DNA of 64,000 nt from a virus (taxonomy: Duplodnaviria > Heunggongvirae > Uroviricota > Caudoviricetes), in the IMG/VR virus record IMGVR_UViG_2667527770_000005, positions 14,376 to 78,375 of that record; one strand, written 5' to 3'. Both the position numbers and the translations under genes were made by a program. How positions within the stretch are numbered: position 1 is the first letter of the stretch; the number at the start of each line of letters is the position of its first letter. A model generated the notes under the pieces. The model made no database searches, was not told the origin of the DNA, and worked only from the letters and a program-made list of their open reading frames with translations. Of the stretch, positions 14,045-46,036 are shown in pieces.

Positions 14045-15529
14045 TTATTCATTAAGCCATGCCAGAGCTTCATCAACCTGCGCTTCGTCTTCGACGCTAA
14101 GCACTTCATCCTGGGGAACATAGTTCGCCAACATAGCGAAACAATATGTATCCCAATGGTCCGGTGAGTGCAGGTTGAGTTTTTTCTTCATATCTTCCTT
14201 TGACATCACCTTCCATTGACCTGCGGAATTTATCCCTACCGGTATCTTTGATGCTTCCTCTATAGTCGCAGCCCCCTTATCAAGCCGCATACGCCCTGAT
14301 TTTACAGCTTCTGCCGCCTGAATATTCGCGAAAGCGCGCATATCGAAATAAAGGCTTTTATCTTCACGGCTGTGCATCTTTTTACCCCAGCGGATACGCT
14401 GGACGGTAATGCCATAGCGTTCGTACATTAGATCAGCCGTCGATTTCCCCAAGCCATCGCCATCAATAGCTATGGTTATGTTCGGGAACCGTTCTGGGTT
14501 ACATTCTGCGAAAATCTTGGCGGCTAACTGCGTTTCTGTAACGTCTGTGTATTCCAGCATACGATAGTTGATTACACGGCGTTTATTTCGCTGGCCGGAC
14601 ACCATCATGATATTAATAACGGACTTATCTCGCCCTGTGCCACCAGCAACGTCAACACATGCAACCCAGCCCCATCCTTTGGCAATCTTGACCTTTCGCC
14701 GCGTCGCCCGCTCAACCTCATCACGACCAAGAAGAAAGCCATCTTGAGATTTGGGAAATTCACCACGTACTTTGATCATGTACATGGGGTTATCACGACC
14801 GCCATACTCCGCAAGTTTTGCTCGTATAAATTTTGCATCTACAAGCGGAGATTCTTCACTATTCAGTATTATCGCAGTAAACAATCCATCAGGATTTCCC
14901 GGGCGAATAGCTAGTCTGTGGTGTGAATCGTAGAAATAGCCTGAAGGTCGCGTAGGCTGGGAAAGAAGCAGAATACGGTTATCCTTACCGGTCAGCGCAC
15001 CTGTTATCACACTGAATGCTTTATCACTCACACCCGACGCTTCGTCGATGATATACAAGAGATGATCGGCGTGTTCACCAGCCAACGCCTCCTCATTTCC
15101 GGGGCGACAGGACTTTATCAATATTGTCCAAACACCCTTGCCAGTCACCTCAAAAAAAGACGTTTCTGTAAGAATGAAATACTTCGACAACCACGGGAAT
15201 CTGCTAACAGCAGTAGCCCAATTGCTCTTTATGTATTTGAAAATACCATCAAGGACTTGCTGTCTTTTGTTAGCGACCAGAATGACGCGAGCGCCGGGGA
15301 AAAACATGATGAAGAGTATTGCAATGATACTCGTCATATCCGATTTACCAGTACCATGGCCGGAGGTCACACTTGTCCAACTGCCGTCCTGCTGCGTGGA
15401 CTCAATGATCTCATCCTGCTGCCAGGTTGGTGTCTTCCCAAACAACACATCAGCGGCCGCAATCCAGTCATAACGATATAGCGCCACCAGCTCGCGCCAA
15501 CGTGGGTCCGTTACGCAACTTCTGGCCAT
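14045..15529 (-). CDS. pacB: PacB terminase large subunit, 494 aa
   Basis: Walker A GHGTGKS; follows pacA; size as P1 PacB. Confidence 0.9.
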
Positions 15530-40049: not shown

Positions 40050-40877
40050 TTATTTCACCGGAACAAACGGAACAGCGGTATTACTGGTCATATACTGCGG
40101 TAATGTACCGTTCCATTTGTTGATCGCTTCCAACTCCATAACACCGGGGTTCTGGCGCAGAGCTTCACCACGTAAACGAATGGCATCAGCTTCGGCCTGG
40201 GCTTTTGTGCGAATAGCATCAGCCTGTCCGGCAGCTTCCGCGCGCAGCATGTTGGCCTCTGCTTCACGTTGTTTGACCTCTTGCTCGCGTTGCAGGGTTT
40301 TTTGGTTTGCCGTGACTTTGGCGTTAATACTGTCAATAACTGTTGGCGGGTATTCTGGCTTACCTACATAAGAGAGGCTCATCACCTGAATGCCGATTGG
40401 CGTCATTTCTTCCTGAATGTCTTTAAGGGCTGCATCAAGCAATTCGGATTTGCCACCGTCGATAAATTTGTCGGTTGTCATTTTGCTGGCTAACCGGTTC
40501 AGAGCATCTGCAACCTTCTGGCGTAGATCGGTATCAGTAATATCATCTACACCTTTGCGATAGGTCTGAAATACCGTTGTGACTTTTGCTGGATCAACCT
40601 TGTAGGCTACGCCGATGTGGTAACCAATGGTTGTTCCGTCGCTCATCTGGAAGCTGAACAGCTCATCGTATGTCTTCATTTGCTTAAAGGTCGGGAAGAT
40701 ATAAACTTCAGTATTCAAGCCTGTCCAGTAGCGACCAACGCCAACTACTTCACCGATACCTTTATCATCCCCCAGCTTATTTACTTTGATCCCTACGTTA
40801 CCTGGCTCTACCCGATCGCATCCGGTCAGACATAAAGAACCCAAAATAATCGCTGCACTAATCAACGTTTTTTTCAT
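40050..40877 (-). CDS. SPFH/band-7 (prohibitin-like) lipoprotein, 275 aa
   Basis: Signal peptide with lipobox LTGC; SPFH-like core followed by coiled coil. Confidence 0.65.
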   Translation of the reverse strand: MKKTLISAAIILGSLCLTGCDRVEPGNVGIKVNKLGDDKGIGEVVGVGRYWTGLNTEVYIFPTFKQMKTYDELFSFQMSDGTTIGYHIGVAYKVDPAKVTTVFQTYRKGVDDITDTDLRQKVADALNRLASKMTTDKFIDGGKSELLDAALKDIQEEMTPIGIQVMSLSYVGKPEYPPTVIDSINAKVTANQKTLQREQEVKQREAEANMLRAEAAGQADAIRTKAQAEADAIRLRGEALRQNPGVMELEAINKWNGTLPQYMTSNTAVPFVPVK

Positions 40878-41094
40878 TAATTAATTTCCTGGTTTTTTCA
40901 CGAAAAAAGACTACTGCGAAAGCTGGGTAAATGAGCGCGAGAAGGACTCCCAACAATACAAGTATTGTGCTGTTAGATGAGATCATATTTGGCAAAAGCC
41001 AAACATACAGAACCAGTGACACAATCAAACAGAGGACGGCATAAATATATAACCGCACCCATAGCGTTCGACATTTGTTCGGATTGTTCTGCAT
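40858..41094 (-). CDS. small two-TM membrane protein, 78 aa, partner of SPFH protein
   Basis: Overlaps SPFH gene start; hydrophobic. Confidence 0.45.
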   Translation of the reverse strand: MQNNPNKCRTLWVRLYIYAVLCLIVSLVLYVWLLPNMISSNSTILVLLGVLLALIYPAFAVVFFREKTRKLINEKNVD

Positions 41095-41237
41095 CCTCTC
41101 ACTCCATTATTTAACGAATAAAAAAGCTGCGGTGCCGGGTGCCTCCCGGTGTCCTTTGGCTGGTTATCCACCGTGGACGGGGAAACAAGGAGAAATGAAT
41201 GTACTGATATAACCATTTCCCCGCGTGCGCTTAGCCG

Positions 41238-41580
41238 CATTCACCGCAACGGAAAGAGCATTCTTGGTGGACCTGTAGATTGGGATATGAACCCGTTACA
41301 GGAGAATGCTCTTACCTGTTACGTGCTCCGTTTCGTGGAGCTAACGGCGGGTGATCGGGCCGCACCAGACTGGACTTATTTCAGCGTTATGCTCATGCCA
41401 GAGAATCAAACTGTGATGGTCGGTGCTGAACTCCGACACAGGGTTGTAGCAAGCCCCGCAAAGCGCGCACTACTGTAGTTGCGGCACATCAGCCTGTGCA
41501 TTCACCACAATGTTGAGAACACTGGTTGTCACGCTGCAACGCAACATTTATTCATAGATTGGGATATGACCCCGTTACGC
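41238..41580. repeat. duplicated about 60-80 bp module (GCATTCACC..TAGATTGGGATATGA(A/C)CCCGTTAC) plus 17-bp inverted repeat AATGTTGAGAACACTGG/CCAGTGTTCTCAACGTT
   Basis: Copies at 41238..41300 and 41498..41580 read directly. Confidence 0.7.
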
Positions 41581-41826
41581 CAGTGTTCTCAACGTTGTAG
41601 TGCCGGTTACGGTTCCGGCCAGGCCTCTTCCTCAACGGGGTGTTCTCCATACGGACTACCGTTTATTGGTCGTTCCTGCGGTTTATGTTGTGAAGCCAGA
41701 TGCTTATCTTCTGGTTGCTTCAAAGAGCTGCACTTCATCACAACGGTAAGGGTACTTCGTAGGGATTCGAACCCTCTGCCAAGCACGGCGATCTCCGACG
41801 TCGCAAAATACCCTTACCTGTTGTGT

Positions 41827-41903
41827 TGGTGCCGGTTAACGGACTCGAACCGCTGACATCCTGCTTACAAGGCAGGCACTCTACCAACTGAGCTAAACCG
41901 GCA
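41827..41903 (-). tRNA. tRNA-Thr (TGT)
   Basis: Hand-folded: anticodon stem CCTGC/GCAGG, loop CTTGTAA, T arm GCGGTTCGAGTCCGT, encoded CCA. Confidence 0.88.
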
Positions 41904-41906
41904 ATT

Positions 41907-41993
41907 TGGTGGGGAGTGATGGAGTCGAACCACCCGAGTCGCAATGACAGTAGATTTACAGTCTCCCCCGCTACCTCTACGGACTAACTCCCC
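41907..41993 (-). tRNA. class II tRNA, probable tRNA-Tyr (GTA)
   Basis: 87 nt, long variable arm, loop CTGTAAA, T loop TTCGACT, encoded CCA. Confidence 0.7.
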
Positions 41994-41998
41994 TAAAT

Positions 41999-42073
41999 TG
42001 GCGATGGTGGGTGGATTCGAACCACCGACCAGTTGGTTAACAGCCAACTGCTCTACCGCTGAGCTACACCATC
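41999..42073 (-). tRNA. tRNA-Asn (GTT)
   Basis: Acceptor GATGGTG/CACCATC, loop CTGTTAA, T arm GGTGG-TTCGAAT-CCACC, encoded CCA. Confidence 0.88.
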
Positions 42074-42732
42074 ACTTGCCGGGTACGTCTCCGGCGAGGG
42101 CTTCCACCTCCGTATGCTTTTCGGCGCACCGCGCCCTGGTTGCAATTCGGTAACAGGGGATGCATAACCCTGGCTTCCAGCGTGATTAGCGCTTTCAGCA
42201 TGACGGGATATACCCGTAAATTCGTGGAACTGTACCCAAAGTGCTGTTAAGCACCGCTGTTACGCTGAAAAGAAGACGCAACAGGAAAGGACGCTGACCA
42301 ACAGATGGCCCCTTCTCGTTCATCTGGTTAATCACACCAGCGCCCTTACCTGTTGTGCCTCCCCGTTCCCTAATACACAGACGGGGACACTCTGCGGTCG
42401 ATTTTTTGACGGGGGACGACTCATACCCCGTGGCATCTGGCTTCTTAGGCCGCTACCATCATCAGATCATCGTTTGCATTTACTTTAATGGTCAGTTTCT
42501 AAACCGCCGCAAAGTCGCTAACCATGACGAAAACCCTGAAAAAAACGCCCACCCGAAGATGGGCAAACTGGAAGCTCGTAACGCACTTCGGTGTTGCCAC
42601 TTAGGCGTATGGTCAACCTGGCAACTCGGCGTCATGATGGGGAAGGAGTCACTACCCCGCCATACTTGCCGCCGCGCCTGTCGCGGCTAACAGCTAAATC
42701 GCTCTATAAATCACGATTCATTGAGTCGATAT

Positions 42733-42763
42733 TACACTAATAAATTTATTAGAGCAATATGGC
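42733..42763. promoter_or_regulatory. tandem/overlapping C1 operators upstream (minus strand) of the tRNA-SPFH-ban transcription unit
   Basis: ACACTAATAAATTTATTAGAGCAATATGG contains two Op matches. Confidence 0.6.
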
Positions 42764-45700
42764 TATAACGTCATGAGCAACACCTCGAGTGTCTCCCTTA
42801 CAAGACACAGAACGTCTGGCAAAAAGAGGTTCCACTCTGAAGCCACTGTCATGATAAAGCTCTCTGATGTTTGGCGCGCCACTGTTAGTAATGAGAACTT
42901 TTGCACCTCGACGATGAGCATCCGTCAACAGAGACACCAGGCGTTTTTGCTCTTCAAACTTAAAGTCATGACCGGAATAGTTCGTGAATCCCTCTGTATT
43001 TGGAAGCGGTTCATACGGCGGATCGCAAAAGATGACATCTCCTTCTCCGGAAGCTTCAATCACCGCTGCAAAATCACCGCATACAAACTCAGACCGCCCT
43101 TCCGCACCGAGGAAGGCTTCCATCTCCTGTAATGGGAAATACGGAGTTTTATACTTCCCATAACCGACATTGAACTCACCGGCCTGGTTGTAACGCGTCA
43201 ATCCGTTAAAACAATGTCGGTTCAGGAACAAAAACGCCGCTGCGCGATGTAAATCATCATAGACTTGTTTGTTAAACGCATTCCGTACTGCCAGGTATCC
43301 TTCCTGTGTGTTGTAGTCCTGGAAGAAACGATGTGCCAGAGTGATAAGTGAATGCGCCTCGCGTTGCAGAGTCTTGTAAAAGTTAATCAGGTCAGCATTC
43401 ACATCATTTAGCAGATTTTCCTGGTATCCGGCATTCATGAAGACAGCTCCGCCACCAACGAAAGGTTCAATCAGGCGCTTCCCTTCTGGCAAATAGCGAA
43501 AGATTTGTTCCAGAACACCAAATTTTCCACCAGCCCATTTGAATATGGACCGTTCGAATTCTGTCGCTGGTTTAACTTTTCGCTCTTTTGTTTCACTTCC
43601 TTCTTTCTGCCGACATACGGCCTTAGTAATCCGATCGCCAATCCAGCGCATTACTGGTATTGCCATACTATTGCCGATCGCTTTGTAACGCGGTCCGTCA
43701 GCTGCAAGCATCGCGGCCTCTTCTTCGCTTAAATCTGGATAGTGATTGCGGAGATATGCCAGTTCATCTGAATTAACTTTTTTACGCTTTTCCGTCGGGA
43801 TCAACGTATGCCCATCAGGAAAACCTTGCAGCCTTTCACATTCGACAGGGGTAAGACGGCGGACAGCTACTTCTGCGTTTCTTACTTCATAGCAAACAGC
43901 TGTTGGATTTTTAGCCATTAGAGATGGTGAAGTATTCTTAGTTGCAGCATGTTGTGTACCGCTCATACGCTCAGGAAAAGCCAATGTAACAAGATGCTCA
44001 TGGCTTTCTTGCTCACGTGCCCGCAATGTACCATGCCCTTCTGACCAAAAACCTGCTCCTGTGCTGCTAAAAACGGCAAGGTCAGTGGCATCTTTAAAAT
44101 CTCTTGCCTTTACTGTCGATGCGGTTTCATCGTCAATATATTCCCCAAATGCCGCCATCCTGAAACCGTTTACGGCTTTCGTCGATTTCATACCGGGAGA
44201 CATGCCAGCGTGTAGGCATGGATTTAGGCTTTCGCCACTGATTGCAGCGCCATTTGCAATAATGGCGGAAGCGATTTCCTTCTTTTTTCGGCTCGGCGCA
44301 ATATTCCGGCGCACGCCTTCGAACTCAAAAAGTACCGTTGCGGGATCGAGGTCTGTTCGAGCACTTGCGACAACAAACACGCGTCGGCGTCGTTGTGCCA
44401 CTCCGAAGTATTGGGCATCAAGGATTCTCCAGGCCACCTTTCGCTGCGGTCCATAAATACAACCACACTGCGGCCACTTTGGAACATGGCAACCGGTTTT
44501 GCCATCCCACCGCCAGAACGCGTTGCTTTTTCCTGATTCAGGTCGATCACCTGGTTCAAATGGCACATCTTCTCCAGCCAATCCGGCAAGGAAACATCCG
44601 AAGGCGTTATCTGCCAATGACAAGACTCCTGGGACATTTTCCCAGACGATAACGGCTGGTTTGAGAAATGACTCAGCCCGTTTGTCGTCAATTGCATTTG
44701 CAAGCTCCACATACTTTAAAGTTAGCGCGCCACGCTCATCATCAAGCCCACCACGTAATCCCGCGATACTGAATGCCTGACAGTTATGGACCACCGCACC
44801 ATTGAGGATATAGGAATGATCACCTTCGACTTCTATGTTGTATACAGTATCTAGGCCTACCGATTTAAACTCTTTGACTGTTCGTAAAAGCATTCCATGA
44901 GCCAATCTTGATTTACGTGACAATTTCTGCGGGCAGATTGTTACCTGATAATAATCCCGTTGATTTACCACGCGATCCTCGATCACTTTTTTGGGCTCAA
45001 CTTCAATAAAGCTGACCGAAGAAACATAACCACAAGTCTGTGACAACCCCGCAACGCCCCAAGCAAGCGCAGGACTAACACTATTAATTCTAAATCCCGC
45101 TTTACCACTTGGTGTCCCATCAGTATCAAGATAGCCTTGTAAAAACACATGACGCAATGGATGCGACATCACCCATGCAGGGATACGTTTAGCATGGCTT
45201 AACTCGCCAAAATGTTCATTAAGCCAATTGGCATAACACGTATCATTCAAGGTTACTTTGATGCTCCCTCGGATTTCGCTTGCCACGGAAAACATGTTTT
45301 CTGGTATGTGGCAATGAAACTTTCTCAATTTCTGGCAATTTATGCCAAAAACAACCGCCTTCTTAGATTTACCTCTCCATCTCCTAATATATCCATCGCC
45401 TACATAAGCGCCCGCAAGATACATAGCCTGTTCTTCAGACAAGAACCGAGAACAAATATCTGGAGATGCAATATTGAAATTAGTTAGAGCGCACCATTGA
45501 TATCCCGGCATATCACATGCTGCTCGCCATTCCGGTTCAGACAACAACTCTCTCTTAAAATATGTGCCATTTTTCCGGGTGTTTTGGGCTTTCCACCGAA
45601 CAGCCAGGAAGGGATGGTCATTGGTTGTTCTTATACCTAAAGGCTGCCCAACGGCATTAAGTAACCCCGTATTAGCTATTTTTGAACCAACTCTTTTTAC

Positions 45701-46036
45701 TTGTTGTAACCGCCCGAGATGACTGACTACGTAATCGCCAGGGCAAACATCTTCTATTGGTTTATAACCATTTTTACAAAGAACCATATGCCCCGCGGTA
45801 AAACATGGTGTTCCCCCGACGAGCACGTCAGGGGATTCGATTTCCCCAGCCAAGACTTTTTTGGCAAGTTTTGTCATGTCGCCAAGGTTGGCGACATGGG
45901 GCCAGCGGAGCGCAAGAACGGCAGATGGAAAAGGCTCGATTTCAGCAAACCACGCCGGACGCATACCCAACGGTTCCCAGGCAATACTCGCGGCTTCAAT
46001 TCCACTGCAAACAGATCCGTAGCACAGCTCTTTCAC
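42749..46036 (-). CDS. dmt: Dmt bifunctional DNA methyltransferase (N-terminal C5-cytosine MTase, C-terminal Dam-like N6-adenine MTase) interrupted by an intein; 1095-aa precursor
   Basis: C5-MTase motifs (CSGIEA, ENV in VIVWENVPG, split PC|QAFSIAG); Dam motifs ([39 protein letters not shown]); GTG start overlapping hrdC stop. Confidence 0.9.
44783..45805 (-). mobile_element. intein (341 aa) with LAGLIDADG homing endonuclease, inserted in motif IV (PCQ) of the C5-MTase domain
   Basis: Begins Cys (CFTAGHMV), ends VVHN, followed by Cys (+1) of CQAFS; two LAGLIDADG motifs ([24 protein letters not shown]); excision restores [12 protein letters not shown] and a 754-aa host protein. Confidence 0.85.

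Follow-up and report, generated by a model that had tools for sequence, protein, structure and literature searches.

Structured-RNA units shared by temperate enterobacterial phages in the putative untranslated leader of a P1-like ban operon

We analysed a region of a P1-like tailed phage whose counterpart in P1 lies between dmt and ban, within a stretch of 64,000 nucleotides (positions 14,376 to 78,375 of the IMG/VR record IMGVR_UViG_2667527770_000005) that we call the window. With moderate confidence, we assign the minus strand of positions 41095-42760 to a long leader of the ban operon that is not translated. On it lie three tRNAs that look functional and three tandem structured-RNA units that are exchanged among temperate enterobacterial phages and that would be co-transcribed with the tRNAs and processed out of the leader. 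Sequence comparison showed the units to be homologous to elements of lambdoid late and early-left leaders, and they appear not to be protein-coding. The region is 93-97% identical to that of the P1-type phages P1, RCS47, vB_EcoM-Ro157c2YLVW, P7, D6 and SJ46, and the minus strand of the window carries all the RNA genes and ban.

The three units (A, B and C) follow each other downstream of tRNA-Thr. Each of them is made of a long hairpin, named H1, and of a domain that opens with GUG(G/A)UGAA. A fourth hairpin of the same family (D) lies upstream of tRNA-Asn. The elements are the following, from the higher to the lower coordinates.

42279..42355, minus strand: hairpin D, H1 family, CAACAGGTAAGGGCGCTGG ... 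CAGCGTCCTTTCCTGTTG; fold z = -5.87
41741..41823, minus strand: H1-A, hairpin of unit A, 19-bp stem with a bulged A; fold z = -5.07
41761..41775, minus strand: T-arm-like hairpin within the H1-A tip, AGGGUUCGAAUCCCU, fully matching the T-arm consensus
41687..41744, minus strand: E2, domain of unit A, with a closing helix GUUGUGAUG/CUUCACAAC, a small inner hairpin and an invariant apical hairpin CCAGA-AGAUAAGCA-UCUGG
41598..41686, minus strand: segment before hairpin B, ending in GCCGGAACCGUAACCGGCACUA, which resembles the 3' end of tRNA-Thr; 87% identity over 107 nt to the early-left leader of Citrobacter phage phiNP
41503..41602, minus strand: H1-B, hairpin of unit B, stem class CAACGUUGAGAACACUGG/CCAGUGUUCUCAACAUUG, 23-nt arms; fold z = -4.91
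41411..41510, minus strand: domain of unit B, with GUGGUGAAU, a small hairpin GCACA-GGCUGA-UGUGC (41499->41484), more hairpins and a closing strand CAUCACA
41322..41410, minus strand: segment before hairpin C, including a hairpin GCUCC-ACGAAA-CGGAGC; 80-84% identity to the late leader of Klebsiella lambdoid phages, where it comes immediately after a tRNA
41247..41321, minus strand: H1-C, hairpin of unit C, UAACAGGUAAGAGCAUUCU ... AGAAUGCUCUUUCCGUUG, with arms of the commonest class; fold z = -4.87
41120..41250, minus strand: domain of unit C, related to the small RNAs (sRNAs) STnc100 and PasD, closed by GUUGCGGUG/CACCGCAGC and followed by U6 (41125->41120); fold z = -3.91

Each of the four hairpins has (C/U)AAC at its start and GUUG at its end. 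In A, C and D that base is followed by a common CAGGUAAG(G/A)G, and GUG(A/G)UGAA comes after hairpins A, B and C. H1 thus has arms of 17-19 bp, which rise from a conserved CAAC/GUUG base and carry a tip that can be exchanged. The domain is opened by the GUG(G/A)UGAA strand, which pairs with a downstream strand of the CACCAC type to close it. On the minus strand the hairpins fold far better than shuffled sequences (z = -4.9 to -5.9, with 0 of 200 shuffles as good), and the spacer 41600-41745 does not stand out from its shuffles (z = -0.8). Hairpin D has 23 pairs on the minus strand versus 16 on the plus strand, and H1-A, which begins 3 nt past the CCA end of tRNA-Thr, has 19 versus 14. Hairpin D is kept in 28 P1-like loci and was found only there. 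The duplicated module described in the initial annotation of this DNA is real, with direct repeats at 41237-41260, 41498-41521 and 41731-41754 and at 41276-41299 and 41555-41578 (the latter 96% identical). Three other descriptions were right in kind and too short. The inverted repeat given as 17 bp has 23-nt arms (41503-41525 / 41580-41602, 91% complementary). The T-arm-like sequence GGGTTCGAATCCC is present, within a terminal repeat whose arms measure 13 nt (41745-41757 / 41806-41818) rather than 10 and extend to a stem of ~19 bp. The noncoding stretch given as 340 bp is part of ~730 nt (41095-41826) with no credible gene, over which P1 has the plus-strand annotations upl and plp.

The stems bear the marks of selection on RNA pairing. 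The 19-nt arms of 65 distinct hairpins of the family were joined by an artificial GAAA loop and aligned, and the pairs were counted. Of the cells of this alignment, 95.5% were paired, compared with 37-59% when the partners were slid, and changes on both sides were seen at 10 of the 18 pairs. The covariation score was 0.341, versus 0.157 for shuffled stems, and was reached in 0 of 500 shuffles. The operon-sense strand was the more stable one in 58 of the 65 stems (mean 4.1 kcal/mol), with 73 G.U versus 5 A.C pairs. The hairpins in the covariation and strand tests were preselected for stable pairing of the sense strand and both measures are somewhat inflated, a first point to be held against our reading; despite this preselection, the G.U positions are fixed features of the main stem class. 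The domains covaried as well. Downstream of the 14 units with CGGUG, 12 closing strands were CACCGC and none was of another type, and CACCAC was found for 55 of the 77 units with UGGUG. In E2, RNAalifold of nine variants gave 18 pairs, and both partners had changed in 5 of these; its closing helix of 9 bp shows double changes at 4 positions, and the inner hairpin covaries. The small hairpin of unit B covaries across loci (GCGCA/UGCGC, GCGUA/UACGU, UCGCA/UGCGA), and the stem class of H1-B recurs in other phages with the compensatory variants GAGACC, GAGGCC and GAGCGG. The tips of H1-B and H1-C share a 24-nt motif, GUAACGGGKUCAUAUCCCAAUCUA, which is present in other contigs with a covarying outer stem. 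These results point to the selection of the elements as RNA structures on the transcribed (minus) strand. The initial annotation had proposed either tRNA remnants or processing or regulatory RNA elements of the ban leader. Covariation of the stems and better folding of the transcribed strand bear out the second proposal, RNA elements and not genes; that the modules are mainly decayed tRNAs did not hold, as discussed below.

Two open reading frames (ORFs) of the plus strand cover the same stretch, one of 109 amino acids (41149-41478) and one of 125 amino acids (41479-41856), annotated as upl and plp, respectively, in P1, RCS47 and JL22. Since both are open and annotated, the stretch might encode small proteins, Upl and Plp, of which the repeats would be coding repeats. 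We find this extremely improbable. Neither ORF matched a Pfam family. The start of plp is TTG in every relative and that of upl is ATG only in P1 and GTG or TTG elsewhere, and in P7, D6, SJ46, Ro157c2YLVW and CMS-2020a the ORFs are truncated or have other N and C termini. Moreover, plp overlaps tRNA-Thr in antisense, P7 and D6 have no upl, neither ORF was called by the annotators of P7, and the constraint that we observed is RNA pairing on the opposite strand. Hence, upl and plp are most likely annotation artefacts over structured RNA.

The H1 family is widespread. The pattern of the 3' arm and tail, CYCTTWCCGTTGYGRTGAA, was found in at least 119 IMG/VR viral contigs, and a 41-nt consensus that covers 3' arm, tail and small hairpin in 628 of the 5426 complete Escherichia coli genomes, nearly always in the chromosome and never annotated. 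Among the loci that we fetched there were 89 distinct hairpins, with unrelated tips of 32-175 nt and near-invariant arms. Family hairpins were recognised by an energy-based test on the arms. The consensus of the arms is CAAC-A-GGUAAGAGCAYUG ... CAGUGCUCUU(U/A)CC-GUUG, with a bulged A and a U.U mismatch, the latter present in the main stem class. It is followed by UG(G/A)UGAAU, a small hairpin GCGCA-GGCUGA-UGCGC, further hairpins and the closing strand. H1 is mostly located between the gene of a Q antiterminator and that of a holin. In a Qin-like prophage of E. coli the order is Q, pR', tR', H1 (8 nt past the T-run of the terminator), domain and holin, and a second prophage has the unit in a leader of 720 nt, bounded by a CI-type repressor and yfdP. 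In the non-P1 viral contigs the nearest upstream ORFs belong to three Pfam families of Q antiterminators (PF06576/PF06530, PF03589, PF06323) or encode CI-type repressors, and the nearest downstream ORFs encode holins or TerB. The presence of the same modules in Q/holin and repressor leaders implies that the P1 ban leader carries typical lambdoid late and early-left RNA modules. This links it to the Q-to-holin "moron" region of lambdoid and Shiga toxin (Stx) phages, which holds tRNAs and sRNAs, among them STnc100, PasA-D, AsxR and AgvB. As far as we found, the family is missing from Rfam and undescribed in the literature searched, on P1 ban-leader RNAs and lambdoid late-leader stem-loops, where nothing specific came up. 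The consequences for annotation are that reference P1 and several relatives carry upl and plp, two likely artefacts, and that a hairpin-plus-domain unit of hundreds of E. coli prophages, and of many phages, is represented neither in Rfam nor in the annotation of genomes.

The units have a mosaic history. In a sensitive BLAST search of 41100-41830, analysed piece by piece, the matches were to non-coding leaders of unrelated temperate phages. E2 has counterparts at an intergenic position in Sashavirus and in the P22-like phage SPN9CC, where the matching hairpin immediately precedes the ribosome-binding site of gene N. In the early-left leader of Citrobacter phage phiNP the matching segment is followed by an H1 hairpin whose tip holds two T-arm-like hairpins, and H1-C with its preceding segment matches the Klebsiella lambdoid late leader directly downstream of tRNA genes. 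Klebsiella phage-plasmids show the order tRNA-Asn, H1, E2, tRNA-Ser, H1, with hairpins beginning 0 and 3 nt past the CCA ends. GTAACCGGCAC likewise precedes H1 in Sasha and in loci L041, L068, L118 and L130. The domain of unit B is common to the non-P1 contigs L083 and L086, and L135 and L136 have the same architecture. Among P1-like phages with near-identical flanks (at least 95%), three unrelated tips of H1-A were seen, one shared by the window and P1, one in P7 and one in L020. SJ46 is missing exactly the segment between the B and C repeats, CMS-2020a has no unit A, and a tRNA-Ser of P7 and D6 takes the place of 41487-41267 of the window. The repeated arms clearly serve as exchange points, which fits homologous recombination between copies and is compatible with a role as RNA.

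The same exchanges could be taken to mean that the units are recombination modules acting at the DNA level, with arms that are homology blocks or sites of an unknown recombinase swapping tRNA and sRNA cassettes, and with RNA structure as a by-product. The wholly different tips at one locus, the exact loss in SJ46, the lack of unit A in CMS-2020a, the tRNA-Ser swap in P7 and D6 and the retention of the arm sequence in otherwise unrelated phages all suit this explanation, and the AAC...GTT base with a bulged base is reminiscent of integron attC sites. We nevertheless regard it as quite unlikely. The strand asymmetry of the stems is unexpected for a site in duplex DNA, compensatory changes preserve pairing, and the units are always co-oriented with the operon. 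Moreover, no integrase or recombinase gene was consistently adjacent at the loci examined, and ordinary homologous exchange is compatible with RNA function and no substitute for it. In detail, the resemblance to the attC core RYYYAAC/GTTRRRY is partial. The main stem class has the CAAC...GTTG base and a bulged A, the second class is bulge-free, and ACACAAC and GTTGTGA are each one position off the core. Integron attC sites proper were rejected on context, since no integrase was near any copy examined and the copies occupy Q-to-holin operon leaders or follow tRNAs.

The positions of the units, in repressor-side early-left leaders, upstream of gene N in SPN9CC and after tR', are also those of antitermination signals. 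The units could therefore be cis-acting antitermination or anti-Rho elements along the leader, like put of HK022, nut of lambda or signals that depend on boxA. The ban leader does hold a terminator, and there are ~2.7 kb to cross before ban. In addition, the 3' arm contains UGCUCUUU, the core of the boxA consensus, with a 5-bp hairpin 14 nt later, a layout like that of boxA and boxB. This role is unlikely in our view. A nut/boxA signal has a single-stranded boxA like GCUCUUUA and a conserved boxB hairpin, whereas UGCUCUUU is base-paired inside H1 and is not kept in other stem classes, e.g., CAACGUUGAGAAC. The boxA-like GCUCUUUGA of E2 is not conserved either, being GCUCGUUGA and GUCCAUCGA in relatives. 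Late operons already have Q. The units of the ban leader lie downstream of its first terminator, so they cannot help the polymerase to pass it. Identity with put RNA was rejected, since a scan of the whole HK022 genome gave no H1-like hairpin, only random hairpins in coding regions.

The "possible degenerate tRNA" that had been delimited at 41751..41818, a T arm without a full cloverleaf, corresponds to the tip of H1-A. The T arm is there, and 41741-41823 was not called as a tRNA by ARAGORN or by the Rfam tRNA model at E<=10. The tip consists of GCGAYGYCGGAGAUCGCC (D-arm-like, containing GG), a variable loop of 6-7 nt, GGYAG, AGGGUUCGAAUCCCU and AC. It is near-unchanged in the window, P1, BUCT554, L069 and L110, which represent four phage contexts, with ~45 invariant nt, and the stem directly below it changes with compensation between phages. 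In the predicted ensemble, the T-arm fold lies 1.1 kcal/mol above the minimum-energy fold, which pairs UCGGA with UUCGA, and has a pair probability of 0.25; the D-arm-like pairing has a probability below 0.05. A full cloverleaf was not upheld: thermodynamics slightly favours another fold, and the D-like and T-like segments are invariant across five variants, which makes covariation uninformative on this point. T-arm-like hairpins (at least 4 bp and a TTCRANN loop) occur in 8 of the 53 tip families, when 0.1 were expected, with at most 2 in 500 shuffles. Since the tip is invariant in four phage contexts while the surrounding stems covary, it appears to be a conserved mimic of a T arm (tRNA-elbow-like), one among many alternative tips, and not a decaying gene.

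These data also bear on whether the units are decayed tRNA genes, functionless remnants of a once larger cluster, which is very unlikely. Such decay would explain the T-arm-like GGGUUCGAAUCCC within the terminal stem and is in line with the extra tRNAs (Ser, Tyr, Arg) in the corresponding region of relatives. It could also account for the likeness between GTAACCGGCACTA, which immediately precedes hairpin B, and the tRNA-Thr 3' end (GTTAACCGGCACCA). GTAACCGGCACTA is the sole short piece resembling a remnant of this kind, and a 10-nt match is near chance level (~1.5 expected in 1.8 kb). No tRNA model matched any module, even at E<=10, and the segment 41598..41686 gave neither an Rfam tRNA match at this threshold nor an ARAGORN call. 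Furthermore, the same arms carry dozens of tips unrelated to tRNA, and the stability of the hairpins is far above that of shuffles. For units A, B and C, the decayed-tRNA and coding explanations are therefore largely excluded. It is unusual to see invariant arms combined with hypervariable tips and with mimicry of the T arm that recurs. In a speculative proposal to which we give a low probability, H1 might be a conserved double-stranded scaffold that displays an exchangeable tip. Since tips are swapped between near-identical phages and about one tip family in seven mimics a T arm or elbow, they may be decoys or adaptors for host factors recognising the shape of tRNAs (RNase P, T-loop modification enzymes or tRNA-targeting defence nucleases). 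If this were true, the turnover of tips would reflect an arms race and the invariant arms would be the handle for a sequence-specific partner. The ~12% of sequenced E. coli with such units in Q-to-holin leaders would then harbour a new class of RNA by which phages counter host defence or manipulate the host.

The domain of unit C gave the only informative match to an Rfam family outside tRNAs. In a permissive scan (E<=10) of 40900-42800, the other matches were chance ones of microRNA and tmRNA type on the hairpins. The match to STnc100 (RF02076) covers 41128-41248 on the minus strand and model positions 31-147 of 206, with E = 2.6e-6 (1.9-kb search) and 38.3 bits, which is below the gathering score of 47. 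With the same model, the copy of phage 933W scored 207.7 bits, that of P7 43 bits and the PasD1 locus of enteropathogenic E. coli (EPEC) E2348/69, which has been validated by experiment, 37.7 bits. The domain of unit C thus seems to be a relative, and not a member, of STnc100. It shares with STnc100 and PasD the GGUGAAU start and an identical 21-nt sequence, CACCGGGAGGCACCCGGCACC. The closing helix shows compensatory changes with respect to STnc100 (UGCGGUG/CACCGCA in the window, AUGGUG/CACCAU in 933W), and a U/C-rich loop lies at the position of the PasD seed. The setting is also shared, an untranslated region near Q, tRNAs, TerB and holin, as seen here and in a preprint (10.64898/2026.05.13.724894) that argues for a common ancestor of PasD and STnc100. 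The Pas sRNAs of EPEC were detected by Northern blot and their stability depends on Hfq (PMC8550237). There are differences, since the unit C domain has no separate terminator hairpin like that of STnc100 and is preceded by H1, which is found neither at the STnc100 of Stx phage 933W, a genuine one located downstream of stx2B, nor at the PasD1 locus. In addition, PasD1 appears to own a promoter, whereas the unit C domain is inside an operon leader. The PasD1 locus (L138, 1231-1436) is preceded by a sigma-70-like TTGACT ... TATTAA and has a hypothetical protein annotated antisense to it. As it has no H1, the GGUGAAU-type domain exists both as a free-standing sRNA gene and within H1 units. Taken as a whole, our comparison suggests that such sRNAs may belong to longer repeated units, excisable from leaders.

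If the elements are indeed leader RNAs that are processed out, the leader would be made as one transcript, in which the tRNAs and the tRNA-like tips might be cutting points for RNase P or RNase E, as in tRNA punctuation. The H1 stems of ~20 bp are possible substrates of RNase III, judging from their size and irregularity. With a hairpin beginning 0-4 nt past CCA, the tRNA would keep a short trailer, and the fragment downstream of it would start with a paired, protected 5' end. Such pairing slows 5'-end-dependent decay. The released compact domains may then persist as stable small RNAs, the last of them possibly an Hfq-binding one by analogy with STnc100 and PasD. RNase E is able to take off an entire hairpin that immediately follows CCA (PMC5291269). 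The GUUG at the 3' base of H1 may pair either with its own CAAC or in the closing helix of the next domain (GUUGUGAUG/CUUCACAAC and GUUGCGGUG/CACCGCAGC). Because GUUG is shared by both helices, H1 could lose its basal pairs when the domain folds, which would leave the ACACAAC trailer exposed.

Several known systems resemble parts of this scheme. The stable RNAs of the T4 tRNA cluster (species 1 and 2, rnaC and rnaD) are structured non-tRNA RNAs in line with phage tRNA genes; they are co-transcribed and cut out with the tRNAs, and their function is unknown. They are single-copy and belong to a lytic phage, whereas H1 is a family of hairpins with exchangeable tips across temperate phages, and no sequence relation between the two is expected. 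In tRNA punctuation, as in mitochondrial transcripts, MALAT1 mascRNA and the C4 antisense RNA of P1 and P7, embedded tRNA-like folds define cleavage points, and P1 matures C4 RNA with RNase P. The ban leader is similar in having tRNAs and T-arm tips embedded in one leader and hairpins 0-4 nt past CCA. However, the helix below the T arm of H1-A is of ~20 bp, compared with the 7-bp acceptor stem measured by RNase P, and most tips have no T arm. Imperfect stems of ~20 bp also bracket RNAs in polycistronic transcripts cut by RNase III (rRNA operons, early RNAs of T7, the N leader of lambda), and a homolog of E2 lies upstream of gene N. RNase III needs no conserved sequence, though, while the H1 arms are near-invariant, and cleavage is here only predicted. 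The PeSL cassettes of T4-type phages, in which repeated stem-loops flank variable inserts and are thought to drive modular shuffling, match the tip swaps and the deletions between H1 copies. They differ in that they include an early promoter and flank ORFs, whereas H1 is promoterless, encloses 30-175 nt of non-coding sequence and is under a strand-specific RNA constraint. No family of bacterial Y RNA (YrlA) was among the Rfam matches at E<=10, and in H1, unlike YrlA, the ends leave through the acceptor-like stem.

The start of the leader and the terminator that follows it are placed as follows.

42729..42760, minus strand: Pban promoter with a bivalent C1 operator (P1 Op72/Obanab), start of the leader, 16-nt inverted repeat ATATTACACTAATAAA/TTTATTAGAGCAATAT
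42539..42565, minus strand: intrinsic terminator at the end of the P1 "dicF-like region", downstream of Pban and upstream of the tRNAs, with a G+C-rich stem of 8 bp, TGCCCATCTTCGGGTGGGCG, and T7 after it

In P1, the first of these corresponds to the annotated P1ban promoter and C1 operators (L001, 4004-4033), in agreement with a C1-controlled promoter near 42750, as had been proposed for this DNA. The proposal that the tRNAs are transcribed from it was right on the location of Pban. Co-transcription is only plausible, because the terminator (42565->42546, then T7) intervenes.

This terminator, which separates the tRNAs from Pban, is one of several points that weigh against processing of co-transcribed units, besides the preselection of the stems and the sub-threshold STnc100 score. 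A strict scan found no other sigma-70-like promoter, and the source of transcription is uncertain. The typical lambdoid units match no Rfam family at E<=0.01. The U-run after the unit C domain is missing in P7 and a defined 3' end is thus not conserved. Of the 150 distinct hairpins of the family, 20 start 0-4 nt past the CCA end of a tRNA on the same strand; the other 130 are not beside a tRNA, and processing of tRNA 3' ends therefore cannot be the general role of H1. The near-invariance of the arms exceeds the needs of pairing; it hints at a sequence-specific partner. Finally, the processing, co-transcription and stability of the units are all inferred from sequence, as is their function. If the units did control the processing or stability of leaders, this would have a bearing on phage gene expression, including that of Shiga toxin transcripts.

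The tRNA genes of the region are the following.

41999..42073, minus strand: tRNA-Asn(GTT), ARAGORN; Rfam tRNA 75.5 bits
41907..41993, minus strand: tRNA-Tyr(GTA), class II, 87 nt with a long variable arm, ARAGORN; Rfam tRNA 35.1 bits
41827..41902, minus strand: tRNA-Thr(TGT), ARAGORN; Rfam tRNA 72.5 bits
39947..40022, minus strand: tRNA with a CAT anticodon, beside a DnaB-like ORF, ARAGORN; Rfam tRNA 64.7 bits

All four, as listed in the initial annotation, exceed the gathering score of the Rfam tRNA model RF00005 (29 bits). This includes the class II tRNA-Tyr, whose rejection had been envisaged and which has one mismatch in the anticodon stem. It was present in 4 of the 14 P1-like loci examined, being absent from P1 and P7 and annotated in vB_EcoM-Ro157c2YLVW. 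The cluster is thus already known for P1, and the Tyr gene for a relative. Relatives showed other tRNAs. A class II tRNA-Ser(TGA) was identified in P7 (L011, 1638-1724), D6 (L012), CMS-2020a and two Klebsiella phage-plasmids (listed loci L014, L007 and L010). It is unannotated in P7, and the annotators of D6 noted that tRNAscan-SE assigned no amino acid to it. Its best Rfam score was with tRNA-Sec (46.6 bits), slightly under the cut-off of that model. Some P1-like contigs have a tRNA-Arg(TCT) in place of Asn. The record of Salmonella phage SJ46 (L013, 1700-2250) has hypothetical proteins annotated where ARAGORN calls tRNA-Thr and tRNA-Asn and lists no tRNA at all, which is an annotation error.

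In P1, the annotation between dmt and ban comprises Pban (C1-controlled, operator Op72), the "dicF-like region", trnA (Asn), trnT (Thr), upl, plp, tciABC, trnI and ban. The DicF label was rejected for the corresponding region of the window (42533-42634), since the DicF covariance model (RF00039) gave no match at E<=10 and only the terminator hairpin is found there. As a strong terminator (8-bp stem and T7) closes this region, Pban transcripts may mostly end after ~200 nt, giving a short C1-controlled RNA, barring read-through by the polymerase. Downstream of the RNA units, tciA, tciB and tciC of P1 are replaced on the minus strand of 40050-41094 by an ORF of 78 amino acids (40858-41094) and a SPFH/Band_7 protein of 275 amino acids (40050-40877), as in Ro157c2YLVW. 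Therefore, the genes downstream of the RNA units are exchangeable too. On the other side, the ORF of the Dmt methyltransferase (42749-46036, minus strand) encodes 1095 amino acids, versus 754 in P1. It includes Hint_2 (residues 77-126) and LAGLIDADG_3 (298-358) domains and an intein splicing domain within the C5-methylase part, which together indicate an intein with a homing endonuclease. This long form is also present in Ro157c2YLVW and in several viral contigs. Within the leader, GAAGCCAGAUGC (42433-42444), upstream of hairpin D, is perfectly complementary over 12 nt of transcript to GCAUCUGGCUUC (41692-41703) in the invariant apical hairpin of E2. The two sites lie 729 nt apart, and ~0.1 such match would be expected by chance in the region.

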